NCBI GenBank assembly: GCA_964426555.1
Contig: CAYRQJ010000004.1
Coordinates: forward strand, 19,109 to 83,108
DNA from: an uncultured Candidatus Saccharibacteria bacterium
Lineage (GTDB): Bacteria > Patescibacteriota > Minisyncoccia > Phycocordibacterales > UBA9973
Direction of reading: 5' to 3'
DNA length: 64,000 nucleotides
Shown: positions 24,376 through 64,000 of the stretch, one piece after another
How the letters are laid out: every line of letters begins with the position of its first letter
Position numbering within the stretch: position 1 is the first letter of the stretch
Notes under the pieces: generated by a model
The model's database searches: none
What the model was told of the DNA's origin: nothing
What the model saw: only the letters and a program-made list of their open reading frames with translations
Made by a program: the position numbers and the translations under genes

Positions 24376-25572
24376 ATGAAAATTAAAAATAAAATACTAA
24401 TCTGGATAATATTCATTATTCTTTCCTCATGTTCAAAGTTCCAAAAAGGTGGCGTCGATGAAACTGGCCTTGATATGGTTGAAGTTGAAGTTCCCTATTT
24501 TGGTAAACTATACACATTTGATTTTTATGGCAGAGAAATCACAATAAAAATTAATCCGTCTATAGTAGCTGATCTTGATTTGGAAAGTAACGACACTGCT
24601 CAAATTAGAGAGTTAGTTAAAAATCTAAAAGACAAAAATTTTGATAAAACAGTAAAAATGCTGATTGACCAAGCAAAAGAAATGGAGCTTGATGCTTTTG
24701 GCTATAGATTACTGTTAAAAAAGTTTGTTGAAGAAATTCTTGAAGACAAATCAAAAAACTTTGGAGAAGTCATAATGTGGTATGGGTTACGAACTAATGA
24801 CCTTGATGCGATACTTTCTAAAAAAGGTAAGCGGATTTTTTGCTATTCTTCTGGGTGGGGTTATTATTTTGTGAGAGATAAAACCGATGAAACAAATAGA
24901 GGAATGATGTCTTTAAATATAGAAAACACAGGGTACTGGAATGACAATAAGAATATTAATCCTGAAAACCAAGACCTACTTTTATCTTTTGATTTATTTC
25001 CAAAATCTAAACATTGCGATTTTATTTTTTCTAAAAAACTTCCTAAATTAGGCAAAAAGATTTTTTCTAAAAAAAGAAGCTTTGTTTATAAAGGAAGAGT
25101 TTATCAATTAAAAACATCATACAATAAATACTTTGTGCAATATTTAAACTCTCTCCCAATGAGAGGGCTTGGCAGAGAATATTTTAAAATTGAATTTAGT
25201 AAAGAAACTACGCAAAGTTTTGATTCTATACCTATGTGGATTAATGGCAAAACAAATGATGAAAAATTTAGCTTTTTACTAACTCTTGTGGATCAAGCTT
25301 TTCCTCATAGCGGTGGCGACAAAATTGAAAAATGGAATTATGTTGAACAAACCATGAAAGATGATTACGTCGACTGCGAAGACAGAGCAATTATGTTTTG
25401 CTATTTAGCAGAAAGATTTACAGATTCCAAAGCAGCCCTAGTCTTAAACGATGGTCACGCATGGGGTGCTGTACTAAACCAAAAATCATACAAATATACT
25501 ATGTGTGATCCGGGGTTAAAGTTGGGTCAAATGCTAGAACCAAATAAAAAATTCCGGATAATAGATCCTTAA
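24376..25572 (+). CDS. lipoprotein with C-terminal transglutaminase-like cysteine-protease core
   Basis: Signal plus ILSSC lipobox; C-terminal DCEDRAIMFCYLAERF...DGHAWGAV...MCDPG matches the Cys-His-Asp arrangement of transglutaminase-like superfamily. Confidence 0.6.
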   Translation: MKIKNKILIWIIFIILSSCSKFQKGGVDETGLDMVEVEVPYFGKLYTFDFYGREITIKINPSIVADLDLESNDTAQIRELVKNLKDKNFDKTVKMLIDQAKEMELDAFGYRLLLKKFVEEILEDKSKNFGEVIMWYGLRTNDLDAILSKKGKRIFCYSSGWGYYFVRDKTDETNRGMMSLNIENTGYWNDNKNINPENQDLLLSFDLFPKSKHCDFIFSKKLPKLGKKIFSKKRSFVYKGRVYQLKTSYNKYFVQYLNSLPMRGLGREYFKIEFSKETTQSFDSIPMWINGKTNDEKFSFLLTLVDQAFPHSGGDKIEKWNYVEQTMKDDYVDCEDRAIMFCYLAERFTDSKAALVLNDGHAWGAVLNQKSYKYTMCDPGLKLGQMLEPNKKFRIIDP

Positions 25573-25587
25573 TCCTAATTAACACAA

Positions 25588-25622
25588 ATGCCCTCCTGCA
25601 AAAATAGGAGGGCATTTTTATT
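25588..25622. terminator. bidirectional terminator hairpin GCCCTCCTGCAAAAATAGGAGGGC
   Basis: 8-bp GC-rich stem followed by TTTTTATTT, between convergent genes. Confidence 0.7.
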
Positions 25623-25640
25623 TGTATTTTTATATTATTA

Positions 25641-27935
25641 TTACTTCGCTACTTTTACAGCGTCGCCAAATTCTATGGAAAGTAATTTAGATACAGCGTC
25701 GGACCCCATGGTTACTCCGTATATTGTGCCAGCGCGGGACATTGTTTCCCGGTTATGAGTCACTACAAGAAGCTGTGTTGACGTTGAAAGTCGTTCTAAC
25801 ATGTCACCATAGCGCCTTGAATTGGCTTCGTCTAGCGCAGCGTCAGTCTCGTCCAATACAAGAAAAGGTGGTGGATTAACTTGAGACATTGCAAACAACA
25901 GTGCAATAGAAACCAAAGACCGTTCCCCACCGGAAAGCATGTTTAATTCTTTAACTTTTTTGTTTGGTAAATCTACATGTATGTCTACACCACGTTCAAA
26001 TTTTGGCAAAGTAGTTTCGCCTGCCTGCGCAGACAGGTCTTCATTTTCGAGACCTTCTTCTATTTCTTCTAAAGATAAAGTTTTTTCTTTTCGCATTTCA
26101 GCAACAAGAGAAAGAAATGCATTTCCCCCACCAAACATAGCTTTAAAGAAATTACTAAATTCACTATTTATTTTATCTATTCCGCGACTGAATTCTTTGC
26201 GAACAGTATCACGCAATTCCCCTATTAATCCCAACAGTGACTGCATACTTTGGTGTAAATCAGTTAGTTCTTTTGCTAAATATTCATCACGCTCTTTAGC
26301 ATTATCAAATTCTTTCGTTATTTCGTCACCACTGCCACCACCTAATTCTTCTAACTTCATACGTAGTCTTTCTAAACTGCGTCTTTCAGATTGTAGTATT
26401 TCTTTTGTAGCATTGTCTAATTTTTCTTCTGAATTTAGTGAATGAATTAAAAATGGTTCAAAGATTTTGTATTCTTCACGAAGAAGCATTATGTCCCCCA
26501 GAATTCTTTCCAGCTCATTTTCTCTATTTTGTTTTTCCGCGTTAAGACGAACACGCTCTACACGTTTTTTGTAATTTTCAGATTCAAAGCTACGCATTTT
26601 GGATTCTTCATCCAGTAAATTTGCGCGCTGTAAATGTTCGTCTTTTTCTAGAATACCAATAGAAGCAATGTTTTGTTCTATTTGGTTTTTTAGATCTTCT
26701 TGCATTGCTATAGCTGCTGACAATTCTTCACTATTATCAGTGTCTATATCTTCTCCTATATCTTTATGAATTCTATATTTATTTAAAAATTCTTTTACGC
26801 GGTGGCTAAGATTTTTTAGATTATCTATCCAAACATATTTTTCAGTATCAGGATTGCCTACTAAATTATCTATTTCATCAGCTAAATGGTCACAAAAAGA
26901 TGTAAATTCATCTTTACTAATATGCACAATTTCACTAGCTACTATTGGCTTTTTCTTTGGAGTTTGCAGTGCTTCAACAAGACCTTCGGTGCGACCAAGA
27001 CTGCGCTCTAAATTCTCACGAGTTCGAAGTAATGCAGATTTTTCAATTTGAATTTTCTCTATTGCTTCTTTTAATACAAATATTTGACTATTGTCATACA
27101 CTGCTTCATCTTCTATATTTCCAGAATCTGCACCGTGAGTTAGAATTTCATTTTCAATATTAAAAATTTCTTTTCTTATATCTTCTTCTTTTTTGTTTAA
27201 AATACCGTACGATGCATTTTCGTATTTGTAATATCTTATAGATAATTCTTTGCGAGCTTCTTCTGCTTCGCTAAGTTTTTGAACTTGTTTTTCTAAAAAT
27301 TTAAGATGTGGTAATAATTCCTTGCGTGCTGCTTCTACTTCGGAGATATTTATTTTTGCTTTTTCTAATTTTCTTTCAGCATCACGAATACGCAACTCAT
27401 ATACTCTTAGCCCTAATGCGTCGTCTATCATACTACGACGTTCACGTGGAGATGAAGATAGCAATCTGTCAGCTTCACCCTGAGAAATAATATGGTGCCC
27501 AGATGCTCCAATATGAACTGAAGCCAATAAATCAGTAACATCTTTTAGCCTTACTTCGGTTCCATTAACACTGTATATACTTTTACCATCAGCATACAAT
27601 TCACGAGCTACGGTTACATTATCAAAATCCAGTGAAATATTTTTTCCACCATCGTTAGCTAATGTTAGTAATCTTTTTTTATTATCAAAAGTTATTGCTA
27701 CGCGTAATTTGTTGGCAGCACCAAGACCTTTGGATCCCTTGAATAATAAATCAGTACTACCTTTACCACGAAGAGATTTCATAGACTGCTCTCCCAATAC
27801 AAAACGAATAGATTCTACAACGTTACTTTTACCTGAACCATTAGGCCCAACTACTGCTGTAATTGAAGAATCAATAGTAACAACTATTTTTTTACCAAAA
27901 GATTTAAAGCCAGTTATTTCTAAAGTCTTTAACAT
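25641..27935 (-). CDS. smc: chromosome segregation SMC protein, unusually short (764 aa)
   Basis: N-terminal head (GPNGSGKSNVVESIRFVLGEQS...QGEADRLL) and C-terminal head (LSGGERSLVSIALLFA...LVLDETDAALDEAN...VVTHNRETM) both canonical; intervening coiled coil/hinge only about 430 aa. Confidence 0.85.
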   Translation of the reverse strand: MLKTLEITGFKSFGKKIVVTIDSSITAVVGPNGSGKSNVVESIRFVLGEQSMKSLRGKGSTDLLFKGSKGLGAANKLRVAITFDNKKRLLTLANDGGKNISLDFDNVTVARELYADGKSIYSVNGTEVRLKDVTDLLASVHIGASGHHIISQGEADRLLSSSPRERRSMIDDALGLRVYELRIRDAERKLEKAKINISEVEAARKELLPHLKFLEKQVQKLSEAEEARKELSIRYYKYENASYGILNKKEEDIRKEIFNIENEILTHGADSGNIEDEAVYDNSQIFVLKEAIEKIQIEKSALLRTRENLERSLGRTEGLVEALQTPKKKPIVASEIVHISKDEFTSFCDHLADEIDNLVGNPDTEKYVWIDNLKNLSHRVKEFLNKYRIHKDIGEDIDTDNSEELSAAIAMQEDLKNQIEQNIASIGILEKDEHLQRANLLDEESKMRSFESENYKKRVERVRLNAEKQNRENELERILGDIMLLREEYKIFEPFLIHSLNSEEKLDNATKEILQSERRSLERLRMKLEELGGGSGDEITKEFDNAKERDEYLAKELTDLHQSMQSLLGLIGELRDTVRKEFSRGIDKINSEFSNFFKAMFGGGNAFLSLVAEMRKEKTLSLEEIEEGLENEDLSAQAGETTLPKFERGVDIHVDLPNKKVKELNMLSGGERSLVSIALLFAMSQVNPPPFLVLDETDAALDEANSRRYGDMLERLSTSTQLLVVTHNRETMSRAGTIYGVTMGSDAVSKLLSIEFGDAVKVAK

Positions 27936-27941
27936 ACTATA

Positions 27942-28637
27942 TTAATCTAACCATTTTTTCTTTTCTAATGCGGCACGGGCGGCGGCTTGCTCGGCTTCTT
28001 GTTTACTGTGGCCTTTACCTTCGGCAATACGGTCTGCGCCAAAAAACACTCCAACAGTAAAATGCTTGTCATGGTCTGGACCAGCTTCGTGCAGGACTTT
28101 GTAAGACGGAGTCACAGAATGATGTTCTTGAGATTTTTCTTGAATTAAAGATTTTGCATCACGCCACAACTTTTTCTTTACTATTTCGTCCAGTCTTGGC
28201 AGTAATGTAGTATGGATAAATTTTTCAGCATTTGCGTAACCATTGTCTTCAAAAATTGCACCTACTACTGCTTCATAAGTATTGGCTAATATATATGTAC
28301 GGGCTTTACCAATGTCTCTTGTTTCTCCTTTGGATAACAACAAATATTCACCAATATTCATAGCAATAGCAACTTCGCCAATAATGTTGGCATTTACCAA
28401 TGCGCTACGATATGCGGTTAGCTCCCCTTCGGCACAATTGGGATATGTTTTATATAAAAAATCTGTAACAACTAATTCTAAAACTGCATCACCTAGAAAT
28501 TCTAATCTTTCATTGTGAGGTAAACCCAGTTTTGCATTTTCGTTTAAATATGAACGATGAATAAACGCAGATGTAAGTATATCTTTGTTTTTAAATTTTA
28601 TGCCAATTTCTTTTTGGAATTTTTCAAAATCTGCCAT
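27942..28637 (-). CDS. rnc: ribonuclease III
   Basis: ERLEFLGDAVLELVV signature, C-terminal dsRBD; 2 nt after upstream stop. Confidence 0.95.
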   Translation of the reverse strand: MADFEKFQKEIGIKFKNKDILTSAFIHRSYLNENAKLGLPHNERLEFLGDAVLELVVTDFLYKTYPNCAEGELTAYRSALVNANIIGEVAIAMNIGEYLLLSKGETRDIGKARTYILANTYEAVVGAIFEDNGYANAEKFIHTTLLPRLDEIVKKKLWRDAKSLIQEKSQEHHSVTPSYKVLHEAGPDHDKHFTVGVFFGADRIAEGKGHSKQEAEQAAARAALEKKKWLD

Positions 28638-28638
28638 G

Positions 28639-29568
28639 TTATTTTTTTGTATTTTTTACTAAAATTTCTGTAGCTTTTCCAAGTAGTGGAATAATATTTT
28701 CGTATAGTGCTAAATTTGGAATACTGGATAATGGAAACCATTTTACATCATCAAGTCCACCTTCTTTTTGTAATTTAAGATCTTTAAATTCTGCACGTGC
28801 TAAGAAATAAACAGCTTGTTTACGAATTTTACCTTTTACTGGATGTGATGCAATGTATTCATTGCGACCAAGTTCGTCTTCTACAACTACTTCAATATTT
28901 AATTCTTCTTTAATTTCTCTTGCAGCCCCAACACGTTCGTCTTTAATGTCATCTATTCCGCCTTTACTTAAAGTCCAAAACCCAAAGATATCGTGCACTA
29001 ATGCAAAATAAATAGTGTCTTTTTCTATTGCATAAATTACAGCTCCGGCTTTTTTCTCTATGGGTAGCGTATCCGGGTCTACAACAACAGGTTCAGTTTT
29101 GGTATTTATTTTTCTTTTGCCATTTTTACCATTTTCATCTTTTCCGGGTTGACCCATTTCTTTATAAACTGCACCCAATACTCCATTTACGAATTTAGGT
29201 GACATATCAGCCCCAAACGCTTTTGCTAGTTCTATAGCTTCGTTAATGGCAACTTTTGGTGGAACATGCTCGTTGTCACCAAATATTAATTCGGCAAGTC
29301 CAATGCGTAAAATATTTCGGTCAATGATACCTATTTTTTCTATAGGCCATTCCGGAGCAGCTTTAACAATAACATCATCTAAAATAGATTTTTTACTAAT
29401 TATAAGTTTTGTAAGTTCACGAGCAAAAGCCGCATCAGGATGTCCTGGTGCAAATTCTGTAATATTTCTGTTTACAATAGCTGGAACTTCTTCCACAAGA
29501 AGATTCCTGAAATCCCATTCAAATAGGGACTGTAGTACGATAGAGCGAGATAAATGCCTGTTTGCCAT
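28639..29568 (-). CDS. nusB: NusB antitermination domain fused to a C-terminal Nudix-like hydrolase domain
   Basis: aa 1-140 NusB (IDRNILRIGLAELIF...VAINEAIELAKAFGADMSPKFVNGVLGAV); Lys/Gly linker; aa about 175-309 with REIKEELNIEV (REUxEE Nudix-box core). Confidence 0.7.
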   Translation of the reverse strand: MANRHLSRSIVLQSLFEWDFRNLLVEEVPAIVNRNITEFAPGHPDAAFARELTKLIISKKSILDDVIVKAAPEWPIEKIGIIDRNILRIGLAELIFGDNEHVPPKVAINEAIELAKAFGADMSPKFVNGVLGAVYKEMGQPGKDENGKNGKRKINTKTEPVVVDPDTLPIEKKAGAVIYAIEKDTIYFALVHDIFGFWTLSKGGIDDIKDERVGAAREIKEELNIEVVVEDELGRNEYIASHPVKGKIRKQAVYFLARAEFKDLKLQKEGGLDDVKWFPLSSIPNLALYENIIPLLGKATEILVKNTKK

Positions 29569-29610
29569 AAATTTATACGGTGTTTAAAAAGAACAAAACG
29601 CGCAAAAAAA

Positions 29611-29823
29611 TTACTTTGCGCGTTTTTTCGCTATCTTCTTTTCCACTTTCTTAAGAACATCAATAACTTTTTTACCTTTGTACATTCCTGTCTTCATGTC
29701 TACACGATGACGCAAATGTACAGAGCCTGTATCTTTATCAGTAACAGTCTTGATTTCGCTAAGAGCGTGGTGTGATCGACGGTTGCCTGTGTGGCCCCGT
29801 GTGTGTCTCATTCGAATTACCAT
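29611..29823 (-). CDS. rpmF: 50S ribosomal protein L32
   Basis: [21 protein letters not shown]...[18 protein letters not shown] matches bL32 (RRSHxAL, HLRHH, YRGxKV). The ORF-track 137-aa version has a non-homologous 5' extension. Confidence 0.85.
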
Positions 29824-63646: not shown

Positions 63647-63764
63647 TCTGTTCTCCCGACTACCTACTTTCCCAATTAATAGTATCATCGGCACTACAAT
63701 GTTTCACTGCTCTGTTCGGAATGGGAAGAGGTGGTTCCACTGCGTCAAATCAGGAGAACGGAAA
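63647..63764 (-). rRNA. rrf: 5S ribosomal RNA
   Basis: Minus strand reads ...GTGGAACCACCTCTTCCCATTCCGAACAGAGCAGTGAAAC...GGGAAAGTAGGTAGTCGGGAGAAC, matching conserved 5S helices/loops. Confidence 0.85.
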
Positions 63765-63887
63765 CCTGAACACCTACATAGAGAATGCAAATTGGCGTTA
63801 TTGTAAACGAGTTCCAAGAAAAAATATAAAACAAACAATATGGTGGTAGCAGAATAAATTCTGCTACCGAAAGTGATCTATATAGTT

Positions 63888-64000
63888 CCTGATAAGATGG
63901 GGTCATTAGTACGCCTTGGCTAAACACAATACTGTGCGTACACCTAGCGCCTATCAACGAAATCATCTCTTACGTCCCTCGTAACGATTTATTATCTTGG
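63888..64000 (-). rRNA. rrl: 23S ribosomal RNA, 3'-terminal about 110 nt (continues beyond window end)
   Basis: Minus strand ...CGTTGATAGGCGCTAGGTGTACGCACAGTATTGTGTTTAGCCAAGGCGTACTAATGACCCCATCTTATCAGG matches 23S domain VI 3' end (GTTGATAGGC...GTGTAAGCGCAG...GGTACTAATGAACCG). Confidence 0.8.

Follow-up and report, generated by a model that had tools for sequence, protein, structure and literature searches.

A NusB protein carrying a tethered NUDT2-like Nudix domain in Patescibacteria

We found that the nusB gene of a Patescibacteria (Paceibacteria-type) genome encodes a genuine NusB followed by a disordered tether, about 25 residues long, and a Nudix domain of the NUDT2/Ap4A-hydrolase kind, an assignment that we regard as practically certain. 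The gene, here called nusB::nudix, is probably the housekeeping nusB of this genome, and no second NusB was found within the 64-kb window (the whole stretch of DNA that was analysed). Few transcription factors are as conserved or as well studied as NusB, which is regarded as an RNA-binding protein with a single domain. Among the ultra-small Patescibacteria the fused form is the ordinary nusB gene of at least 588 species, so that in a bacterial radiation that ranks among the largest and the least understood an enzyme-derived second domain on NusB is the usual state. An earlier note on this DNA had proposed a NusB–Nudix fusion, and both of its domain calls were upheld by sequence models, predicted fold and hundreds of homologues of the same architecture. 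The protein is named only "NusB" in the databases, and we found no description of the fusion in the searchable open-access full-text literature. The features of the locus are collected in Table 1.

Table 1. Features of the nusB::nudix locus, with positions numbered from the first letter of the window.
Feature	Position	Strand	Basis or remark
nusB::nudix gene, 309 codons plus TAA stop (28639-28641)	28639..29568	minus	ORF listing, DNA, full-length homologue coverage
NusB domain, residues 1-140, seven-helix bundle	29149..29568	minus	PF01029, TIGR01951, phmmer alignments, Foldseek
Flexible Lys/Gly-rich linker, residues 141-168 (PGKDENGKNGKRKINTKTEP...)	29065..29148	minus	low pLDDT
Nudix-fold domain, Ap4A/ApnA-hydrolase (NUDT2-like) type, residues 169-309	28642..29064	minus	PF00293, Foldseek, PDB profile search
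Nudix box G203...I225, GGIDDIKDERVGAAREIKEELNI	28894..28962	minus	read from sequence, column statistics
rpmF (ribosomal protein L32), upstream	29611..29823	minus	translation; start approximate
Terminator-like hairpin (29626-29595) then BoxA-like GTTCTTTTTAAACA (29594-29581)	29581..29626	minus	BoxA-like element 13-26 nt ahead of start codon
rnc (RNase III)	27942..28637	minus	start codon 1 nt past nusB::nudix stop
smc, short 764-aa form, last gene of conserved block	25641..27935	minus	ORF listing

In the window DNA the gene is one unbroken open reading frame of 309 amino acids with an ATG start. Its N-terminus, MANRHLSRS, is invariant among homologues, and the start is therefore correct. As with any single metagenomic sequence, one may ask whether adjacent nusB and Nudix genes were merged by an error of sequencing, assembly or frame. 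Nothing specific speaks for such an artefact, and we give it next to no credence: the same continuous frame recurs across independent projects, with at least 588 species-level genomes and thousands of database proteins that have it, and the homologues, these genomes and 80 related loci together refute it. A close copy that seemed to be a stand-alone Nudix gene beside nusB (P0130) proved to be a fusion truncated by a contig end. The best 120 homologues all carry both PF01029 and PF00293, except for one shorter entry of 273 amino acids. Among the close stand-alone Nudix relatives checked, we found no split pair of nusB and nudix genes that might have been the ancestor of the fusion; one true stand-alone relative (P0164) lies within a phage-like element and another (P0245) in an ordinary bacterium among unrelated neighbours. 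The same Nudix clade is elsewhere fused to Metallophos, GDSL lipase, Endonuclease V and DnaA_C HTH domains.

The N-terminal 140 residues had been read as unmistakably NusB, and the profile and fold comparisons bear this out. The Pfam NusB model PF01029 matches residues 7–136 with 100.6 bits against a gathering score of 23.1 (E 1.2e-28), and the NCBIfam nusB equivalog model TIGR01951 scores 115.3 bits against a cut-off of 88.35, covering profile positions 2–130 of 131. In phmmer alignments the NusB proteins of T. maritima, E. coli and Aquifex align over nearly their full length with residues 1–140, and the VPxKVAINEAIELAK-FG block is almost identical in all three. An aromatic residue, F16, is kept at the position of E. 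coli NusB Y18; this and the BoxA-like motif enriched upstream of the gene are indirect hints that the NusB part may bind BoxA RNA with S10. The model predicts seven helices, for the most part at a pLDDT of about 90 or higher. By Foldseek, this part has a TM score of 0.88–0.89 to Aquifex NusB in the NusB–NusE–BoxA complex (3r2c), and 0.80–0.89 across the E. coli, M. tuberculosis, T. maritima and Aquifex proteins. The NusB part is most probably an orthologue of NusB itself.

The linker was described in the earlier note as rich in Lys and Gly; its composition agrees, and disorder is predicted, with pLDDT below 50 over residues 143–163 in one predicted model and 143–159 in another. Family linkers have a median length of 20 amino acids (5th–95th percentile, 11–28) and contain 23% Lys. 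The net charge is only about +1, and there is therefore no obvious RNA-binding tail. The segment G139-x-P141-G-K143 at the linker start and the segment P169-I-E-K-K are both nearly invariant among homologues. The models indicate that the NusB and Nudix domains fold separately and have no set mutual orientation: the single domains are modelled at pLDDT of about 90 or better, although pTM for the whole protein is 0.52–0.54. A deeper alignment raised the AlphaFold pLDDT from 80 to 90.5 but left pTM at 0.54, with the domains still not fixed together.

The C-terminal domain aligns to the Nudix fold, which takes up residues 169–305, and retains the three glutamates of the REx2EE core. The Pfam NUDIX model PF00293 matches residues 194–285 with 36.7 bits against a gathering score of 21.1 (E 5e-9). 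The top Foldseek match is the Aquifex Ap4A hydrolase 3i7u (TM 0.86), and 1vc8 is matched with a TM of 0.84. The predicted topology consists of strands in residues 170–204, a helix (211–223) bearing REIKEE, strands in 227–279 and a C-terminal helix. When the family profile was compared with the PDB, the eight top matches were all ApnA hydrolases (E 3e-15 to 1.5e-10), beginning with the Aquifex Ap4A hydrolase (3e-15), Chlamydia CT771, T. thermophilus Ndx1, human NUDT2 and the C. elegans Ap4A hydrolase; M. tuberculosis Rv2985 and Dcp2 decapping enzymes came after them. W198-T-x-x-K202-G of the window protein is the counterpart of the NUDT2 motif WTPPKGH. Furthermore, Y238 aligns with a Tyr of the Aquifex, Ndx1, human and CT771 enzymes, and Y289 with a Tyr or Phe; in the C. 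elegans and human Ap4A hydrolase structures, one aromatic residue downstream of the box and a second near the C-terminal helix stack the adenine.

On these profile matches the Nudix domain is of the Ap4A/ApnA-hydrolase (NUDT2-like) type and not RppH or MutT. In the comparison with MutT and RppH that the earlier note called for, the catalytic glutamates E218, E221 and E222 are kept but the type is a different one. We reject the RppH, TIGR02705 YtkD, MutT, NudC and similar identities because every curated model scores far under its cut-off. The best RppH model (PRK00714) reaches 17.8 bits against 118, all RppH cut-offs being 116 or more; the PDB matches with E<=0.01 do not include E. coli RppH and have Bdellovibrio RppH only at 1.6e-3. 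The model for the MutT1/Rv2985 8-oxo-(d)GTP phosphatase (NF052459) gives 32.8 bits against 475 and aligns with the Nudix part alone, with neither a score above the cut-off nor a C-terminal histidine-phosphatase domain found.

The box of the window protein reads G203-GIDDI-K209-DERVGAA-R217-E218-I-K-E221-E222-L-N224-I225. The stretches that had been quoted as a Nudix box with minor deviations, REIKEELNIEV and GGIDDIKDE, are present, and against GX5EX7REUXEEXGU there are two deviations: the first Glu is replaced by K209 and the Gly by N224. G203, R217, E218, I219, E221, E222 and I225 are kept, leaving the metal-binding REx2EE core intact. Because R217-E218-x2-E221-E222 is retained in the presence of K209 and N224, hydrolysis by the window protein is plausible from its sequence.

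Conservation across the family was examined in 275 full-length fusions, a sample shaped by the queries rather than a census, of which 131 lack the EEE triad. Only 29% of these 131 retain E218 and 27% retain E221, while the residues of the pocket persist: W198 and K202 in 100%, W277 and Y289 in 99%, Y238 in 96% and K250 in 92%; D193 is kept in 98%. Across the family, the losses are of the type RE to RV, RI or RK and EE to KE (RVVKKE in the degenerate-box orthologue P0199, for example), and Y238 and Y289 are kept in at least 96%. In the window's own clade the box is mostly canonical, GEREEEG being the commonest pattern. Degenerate-box genes keep their rpmF/nusB/rnc surroundings, and among fused representatives the domain order and short linker are constant although the Nudix domains are only 27–57% identical to that of the window. 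Since about half of the sampled homologues have lost the catalytic glutamates yet keep the domain, hydrolysis is not the family-wide point of the fusion, and cleavage cannot be essential. The earlier proposal that the fusion links antitermination to hydrolysis of a nucleotide, cap or alarmone is thus retained as a suggestion and given up as an explanation for the family as a whole. Because the pocket residues are near-invariant while the catalytic glutamates are often lost, the conserved job of the Nudix domain looks like binding of a purine-nucleoside-polyphosphate group, with hydrolysis optional.

The nusB-rnc-smc gene order was correctly described before, and it is shared widely: of 80 related loci, 79 have rnc immediately after the fusion gene and 73 have smc downstream. 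Upstream, rpmF is located 42 nt from nusB::nudix in the window and was found by tblastn in 78 of the 80. The order extends to divergent loci, with rnc directly downstream in L081–L083 and L092 and a Pfam Ribosomal_L32p match to the equivalent upstream gene in L083 and L092. As to phylogenetic distribution, which had been left to be traced, the fusion occurs in at least 588 species-level genomes of Patescibacteria, nearly always in the order rpmF - nusB::nudix - rnc - smc.

The interval ahead of the gene contains a hairpin and a BoxA-like element (Table 1); the BoxA consensus is GYTCTTTAANA (PMC5725501). A BoxA-like motif is enriched upstream of nusB::nudix in relatives as well. The rRNA content of the window is a 5S gene and the last 116 nt of a 23S gene only, and no rRNA operon was found in any of 88 retrieved loci, so the rRNA leader and its BoxA lie beyond the DNA covered.

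The NusB-Nudix pair also recurs, again as a unit, C-terminally in NB-ARC/TPR proteins, and relatives of these proteins bear cold-shock or S1 RNA-binding domains where the NusB-Nudix module sits. For the NB-ARC proteins PADLOC gave weak domain-level matches only, and we do not assign them to a known defence system.

How might the two domains work together? We tentatively propose that the tethered Nudix domain captures, and in the window protein also cleaves, the triphosphate or Np4 cap at the 5' end of the nascent transcript that bears BoxA. Like other NusB proteins, the NusB part would join S10 in binding the BoxA RNA of the nascent rRNA leader, and would thereby keep the Nudix module beside the transcript. 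The module would bind a purine-nucleoside-polyphosphate group, for which the most likely candidate is the triphosphate or Np4N cap at the 5' terminus of that same transcript. Lineages with an intact box, that of the window included, may also cleave this ligand and so act as a tethered decapping enzyme or pyrophosphohydrolase ahead of RNase III processing of the leader, whereas lineages with a degenerate box may merely hold it. Np4 caps are added at transcription initiation and are also taken off by Np4A hydrolases, the Nudix enzyme RppH among them (PMC13010140). In favour of a 5'-end ligand we count the short flexible tether, the coupling of the gene to RNase III, the C-terminal placement of the NusB-Nudix unit in NB-ARC/TPR proteins whose relatives have RNA-binding domains there, and the precedent of RsmB, in which a NusB-like domain is fused to an rRNA-modifying enzyme. 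Against it we count the RppH models far under their cut-offs, the box deviations K209 and N224, the frequent loss of catalytic Glu and the linker charge of only about +1.

Three other functional readings have to be weighed against a 5'-end ligand. The module may bind a free nucleotide instead (Ap4A or another ApnA, an NTP or (p)ppGpp), degrading it in the window lineage, so that occupancy tunes antitermination and couples rRNA synthesis to stress or energy state. We consider this doubtful, although the nearest solved relatives all hydrolyse free ApnA and the pocket residues are kept even without catalysis, a pattern exactly as in the ligand-sensing Nudix domains of TRPM2; moreover, the top fold matches include the Nudix domain of NrtR (3gz8), which senses ADP-ribose within a transcription regulator. 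A sensor, however, needs a route by which occupancy is passed to NusB, and no fixed contact is predicted (pTM 0.52–0.54); its ligands are candidates only, and the placement of NusB-Nudix at the position of RNA-binding domains in NB-ARC proteins is left unexplained.

The absence of catalytic glutamates from many lineages, in a domain that is still under purifying selection, would also suit a protein-binding adaptor, that is, a Nudix fold built into the rRNA antitermination complex as a structural element that contacts RNA polymerase, NusA, S10 or RNase III and needs neither ligand nor catalysis. SuhB, an enzyme-fold protein, is integral to the E. coli rrn antitermination complex (PMC6614797, PMC6614801). 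The near-invariance of G139-x-P-G-K143 and P169-I-E-K-K likewise implies that more than a passive spacer is conserved. We nevertheless judge an adaptor unlikely, as the most conserved residues form the canonical nucleotide pocket (WTxxKG, Y238, K250, Y289) and no new surface. Least favoured of the functional readings, and in our estimate quite improbable, is an Ap4A- or NTP-sanitising housekeeping hydrolase that was joined to nusB by chance during genome reduction and has no link to transcription. The mostly canonical GEREEEG-type box of the window's clade, the beads-on-a-string independence of the domains and the fusion of the same Nudix clade to unrelated partners (Metallophos, GDSL lipase, Endonuclease V, DnaA_C HTH) are what such an enzyme would show. 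But a mere enzyme deprived of its catalytic glutamates is expected to be lost, and degenerate-box domains persist in the same operon with conserved pockets; order and short linker (11–28 amino acids) stay constant despite Nudix identities of 27–57%, and both domains were co-opted jointly into NB-ARC proteins.

More broadly, and with considerable doubt, we suggest that in a large branch of Patescibacteria the rRNA antitermination complex gained a Nudix module that would read, and in some lineages cut, the nascent rRNA leader at its 5' polyphosphate or Np4 cap, or else respond to a free ApnA signal; that this module may replace SuhB; and that NusB-Nudix was co-opted as an RNA-sensing domain in NB-ARC/TPR (STAND) proteins. 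If the Nudix domain acts on the transcript 5' end or senses ApnA, then antitermination, 5'-end chemistry (triphosphate or Np4 caps) and RNase III processing would be joined in one operon, and rRNA biogenesis would become directly accessible to experiment in organisms that can rarely be cultured. Built-in recognition of a nucleotide or cap would likewise be a regulatory or quality-control input to rRNA synthesis that is new relative to model bacteria. If the domain is merely a co-expressed Ap4A hydrolase, the fusion would be a curiosity of genome streamlining. The family also forms a clean natural series from enzyme to binding module, with canonical and degenerate boxes in orthologous genes, and should be useful for the study of pseudoenzyme evolution.

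Among known systems, characterised NusB proteins are single-domain and about 130–160 amino acids long, and the window protein differs from them by about 170 extra C-terminal residues. RsmB/Sun, which methylates 16S rRNA (m5C967) and has a NusB-like domain at its N-terminus, is a precedent for fusing an RNA-binding domain of the NusB fold to an enzyme acting on rRNA. RsmB models match residues 32–154 of the window protein, but with 41.7 bits against a cut-off of 319; the partner in RsmB is a SAM methyltransferase and not a Nudix domain, and a Pfam search found no methyltransferase domain in the window protein. The ApnA hydrolases (NUDT2, the C. elegans enzyme, Aquifex aq_158, Ndx1, CT771 and the Nudix domain of MutT1/Rv2985) are the top profile and fold matches and share with the window domain the W-T-x-x-K-G motif before the box and the aromatics at the Y238 and Y289 positions. 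Their identity to it is only about 20–30%, however, and the window domain differs in its fusion to NusB and in the replaced first Glu and Gly of the box, reaches no curated NCBIfam model, and belongs to a family in which many members have lost the catalytic glutamates.

RppH, a Nudix enzyme for RNA 5' polyphosphate and cap groups that is also an Np4A hydrolase (PMC13010140), has the activity that we propose for the tethered domain, but it is free-standing and differs in sequence (no RppH model exceeds 17.8 bits, the cut-offs being 116 or more). SuhB offers a parallel as an enzyme-fold structural subunit of the NusB-containing E. coli complex (PMC6614797, PMC6614801), but it has an unrelated inositol monophosphatase fold and is a separate polypeptide. 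A further likeness is to TRPM2, whose fused Nudix domain retains activity in some lineages and in others does nothing but bind its ligand (PMC6461439). The box of its NUDT9-H domain is canonical or vestigial (REF..EE to RIL..QE) depending on lineage, similar substitutions occur in NusB::Nudix, and in NUDT9 the changes RE to RI and EE to KK abolish catalysis (PMC6461439). NUDT9-H differs in belonging to the ADP-ribose pyrophosphatase subfamily, in being part of a eukaryotic membrane channel and in having an established ligand, ADPR.

The gene nusB::nudix encodes a protein that is NusB in its N-terminal part and Nudix in its C-terminal part, as the earlier note had proposed. Pfam assigns residues 7–136 to NusB (100.6 bits, E = 1.2e-28) and residues 194–285 to NUDIX (PF00293; 36.7 bits, gathering threshold 21.1, E = 5e-9), and TIGR01951, the nusB equivalog model of NCBIfam, is matched at 115.3 bits (cut-off 88.35). 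The Nudix motif, quoted in that note as having minor deviations, is present: its two departures from GX5EX7REUXEEXGU are E to K209 and G to N224, and the REx2EE core is whole. The nusB-rnc-smc operon order likewise stands, the one addition being that it runs on the minus strand. The nusB::nudix stop lies 1 nt from the rnc start codon, smc follows rnc, and rpmF (L32) ends 42 nt upstream of the fusion gene.

Canonical bacterial SMC proteins, at about 1,100–1,200 aa, are much longer than the product of the smc gene in the window. Since tblastn matches in related loci span a similar length, the short smc seems typical of the window's clade. The GC-rich hairpin between smc and a convergent ORF looks like a bidirectional terminator.

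Features of the window and of loci carrying related proteins, with positions on the sequence named
Feature	Sequence	Position	Strand	Basis or detail
nusB::nudix ORF, 309 codons	window	28639-29568	minus	ORF listing, DNA; uninterrupted
Nudix box G203-GIDDI-K209-DERVGAA-R217-E218-I-K-E221-E222-L-N224-I225	window	28894-28962	minus	sequence
Terminator-like hairpin after rpmF	window	29626-29595	minus	hairpin search
BoxA-like GTTCTTTTTAAACA	window	29594-29581	minus	directly after hairpin, 13-26 nt before ATG
smc, 764 aa	window	25641-27935	minus	
GC-rich hairpin, 12-13 bp	window	25586-25617		T-runs on both strands
ORF of 398 aa, convergent with smc	window	24376-25572		
5S rRNA and final 116 nt of 23S rRNA	window	63651-64000	minus	right edge
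P0253	L088	98-3757		single uninterrupted 1219-aa ORF
NB-ARC gene and P0207	L089	1263-4734		
P0216 with TPR protein	L090	5001-9502		
P0164	L085	4001-4453		stand-alone Nudix relative, canonical box

AlphaFold was run with 20 and then with 67 aligned homologues, giving mean pLDDT values of 80.1 and 90.5. Residues 2–138 are modelled as a seven-helix bundle and residues 170–308 as an alpha/beta domain with REIKEE on helix 211–223; pLDDT falls below 50 at residues 143–159. The pTM stayed at 0.52–0.54 though each domain was modelled at about 90 or better, so that the linker seems to leave the two domains free to move relative to each other. Across the family the linker has a median length of 20 aa, 23% Lys and a net charge of about +1. 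In Foldseek searches of the PDB the C-terminal part aligns with the Aquifex Ap4A hydrolase 3i7u (E = 1.4e-8, target-normalised TM 0.86), and also with mycobacterial MutT1/Rv2985, the C. elegans and human Ap4A hydrolases, T. thermophilus Ndx1 (TM 0.84) and the NrtR Nudix domain. The N-terminal part matches NusB structures including the Aquifex NusB–NusE–BoxA complex 3r2c (TM 0.88–0.89). By phmmer, residues 3–133 align with residues 5–129 of the 139 in E. coli NusB, with near-identity across the block VP.KVAINEAIELAK.FG..S.KFVNGVL.

The best 120 database homologues (58–97% identical, about 300 aa) come from Patescibacteria, Paceibacterota, Nomurabacteria and Pacebacteria MAGs, and all except one shorter 273-aa entry carry PF01029 and PF00293. 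They are named only 'NusB', if named at all. On the phylogenetic distribution, which the earlier note had asked about, a scan that took a single genome from each GTDB species confirmed at least 588 fusion loci. The 80 listed are all full-length, every named lineage among them is Patescibacteria, and the gene order recurs, with rnc downstream in 79/80, rpmF upstream in 78/80 and smc downstream in 73/80. An assembly artefact, to which we give a negligible probability, is refuted because the fusion recurs both in these homologues and in the species loci. The fusion is thus real, and databases show its two domains under the name NusB only; a full-text literature search found no paper on it, and as far as is searchable it is undescribed.

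The Nudix part alone, searched exhaustively by HMMER against 1.84 billion cluster representatives, matched no more than 760 proteins with E of 1e-3 or below, 121 of them reaching 1e-10 or below, and by this measure the fused domain is a distinct, fairly isolated Nudix clade. Full-length NusB–Nudix fusions make up 35 of the best 150 matches, their Nudix domains being 27–57% identical to that of the window. One apparent stand-alone close copy, P0130, is actually a fusion interrupted by a contig end. True stand-alone relatives are about 30–35% identical, their box is canonical, and their surroundings, in a phage-like element and in an ordinary bacterium, are unrelated. One of them, P0164, has phage- or mobile-element-like surroundings with an integrase, a DNA methylase and Phage_rep_O. 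Further proteins of the narrow clade (P0223, P0260, P0230, P0172 and P0168) show other architectures: fusions to a sigma70_r4/DnaA_C helix-turn-helix, to a calcineurin-like phosphoesterase, to a GDSL lipase and to Endonuclease V, and a tandem Nudix–Nudix protein.

A profile of 31 diverse fused Nudix domains was searched against all PDB sequences, and its top eight matches are all dinucleoside-polyphosphate hydrolases: the Aquifex Ap4A hydrolase first (3e-15), Chlamydia CT771, T. thermophilus Ndx1 (wild type and E50Q mutant), human NUDT2 (three sequence variants) and the C. elegans Ap4A enzyme. Next in rank are Rv2985 of M. tuberculosis and the Dcp2 decapping enzymes; for Bdellovibrio RppH the profile gives no better than 1.6e-3, and the E. 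coli RppH is absent from its PDB matches. In alignments, the fused domain and ApnA hydrolases have in common a W-T-x-x-K-G motif upstream of the box, and aromatic residues of the hydrolases fall opposite Y238 and Y289, positions that we take to be the adenine-stacking pair of Ap4A hydrolases. RppH (NCBIfam models at most 17.8 bits, cut-offs 116 or more) and MutT1 (32.8 bits, cut-off 475) are rejected as identities. Because all curated NCBIfam Nudix models score the window protein far under their cut-offs, its Nudix domain is, judged by sequence, NUDT2-like in type but outside any named orthologous group.

The catalytic box is often lost while the pocket is kept. Among 275 full-length fusions aligned to the domain HMM, a sample shaped by our queries and not a census, only 144 retain the E218/E221/E222 triad. 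In the other 131, where R-V..K-E, R-I..K-E, R-K..E-E and R-E..K-E recur, E218 is kept in 29% and E221 in 27%; W198 and K202 are kept in 100%, W277 and Y289 in 99%, D193 in 98%, Y238 in 96% and K250 in 92%. The degenerate-box genes are not decaying remnants: three of them (P0228, P0219 and P0159) each lie directly upstream of rnc, and length is kept (about 291 aa) in the clade of P0199, which includes P0277–P0288. Upstream of the three is rpmF (P0219, P0159) or RNase HII (P0228). The P0199 clade also keeps the pocket residues, and its precomputed Pfam annotation is NusB alone, NUDIX escaping detection. At matched NusB divergence, Nudix identity is 40% in degenerate lineages versus 52%, which points to somewhat faster evolution that is still clearly constrained. 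A rough neighbour-joining tree intermixes proteins with canonical and with degenerate boxes, a pattern suggestive of repeated independent loss. The sub-clade of the window protein has a whole REx2EE core, position 209 being K or Q and position 224 being N or D (patterns GKREEEN and GKREEED), and catalysis by the window protein is plausible but unproven.

Genes outside the housekeeping context carry the two-domain module as well, with a degenerate box. P0253 reads HEPN_Swt1–NB-ARC–TPR–NusB–Nudix; an NB-ARC gene precedes P0207 (CSD-like–NusB–Nudix); and P0216 is a free NusB–Nudix gene adjoining a large TPR protein and a NYN-domain gene, its locus having common metabolic genes on its flanks and belonging to a genome of ordinary metabolism. 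Over both domains, P0253 and P0207 are 37–44% identical to P0216. The homologues of P0253 are NB-ARC/TPR proteins about 900 aa long that make up one family; they usually end in a cold-shock domain, sometimes in S1, and a few carry a C-terminal CSD and NusB without Nudix. For the NB-ARC proteins, which may be an RNA-sensing STAND system, PADLOC hits were no more than weak.

Upstream of the gene we found a BoxA-like motif. Its core G[TC]TCTTT lies within 130 nt upstream in 16/76 related loci, that is, in only a fifth, and the window copy is imperfect and overlaps a T-run; mononucleotide shuffles gave 0.59 +/- 0.76 loci. The core occurs 2.33 times per kb upstream of the gene versus 0.32 elsewhere in the same loci (about 7-fold), and the 8-mer GYTCTTTA 0.91 versus 0.05 times (about 17-fold). 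Loci with the motif include L002–L004, L010, L042, L048, L053, L056, L061, L069, L073, L075 and L081/L082, with striking copies in L042 (GCTCTTTAATCAA) and L048 (GTTCTTTAAACA); in L053 and L069 the motif stands in tandem. The BoxA consensus GYTCTTTAANA is gamma-proteobacterial; autoregulation of Nus-factor genes via upstream BoxA elements is documented (PMC5725501). The motif hints at BoxA-mediated autoregulation of nusB::nudix, and hints that the NusB of the fusion still binds BoxA. The 16S gene and its leader, the expected place of an rRNA BoxA, lie beyond the window edge.

The NusB part is genuine, an ApnA-hydrolase-type nucleotide pocket is kept irrespective of catalysis, the fusion is tightly linked to RNase III, and the tether is flexible. 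For the mechanism we infer that NusB and S10 would bind BoxA of the nascent rRNA leader and that the tethered Nudix pocket would hold a nearby purine-nucleoside-polyphosphate group. Tentatively, the likeliest ligand is on that very transcript: its 5' triphosphate or its Np4 cap, which would be cleaved in lineages with an intact box. This ligand is favoured because the NusB-like domain of RsmB already brings an enzyme to rRNA (RsmB models match the NusB part of the window protein), because Dcp2 decapping enzymes are next-best in the PDB profile search, and because the module is used as a unit where RNA-binding domains normally sit. It is favoured also because enzymes that hydrolyse Np4A, among them the Nudix protein RppH, remove Np4 caps as well, and these caps are added at transcription initiation (PMC13010140).

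A main weakness of the 5'-end reading is that the fused domain falls outside the RppH family. The pocket might instead sense or hydrolyse free ApnA or an alarmone and tune antitermination, which we consider rather unlikely; that the fusion serves as a SuhB-like protein adaptor is unlikely, and that it is a housekeeping hydrolase uncoupled from transcription is quite doubtful.

The fusion is lineage-wide, sits on a classic transcription factor, displays a drift from enzyme to binder and opens direct experiments. For loss of the box with binding kept in a fused Nudix domain, the NUDT9-H domain of TRPM2 is a close precedent: it is catalytically active in invertebrates but in vertebrates does nothing more than bind ADP-ribose, and catalysis in NUDT9 and TRPM2 is lost through the changes RE to RI and EE to KK (PMC6461439).
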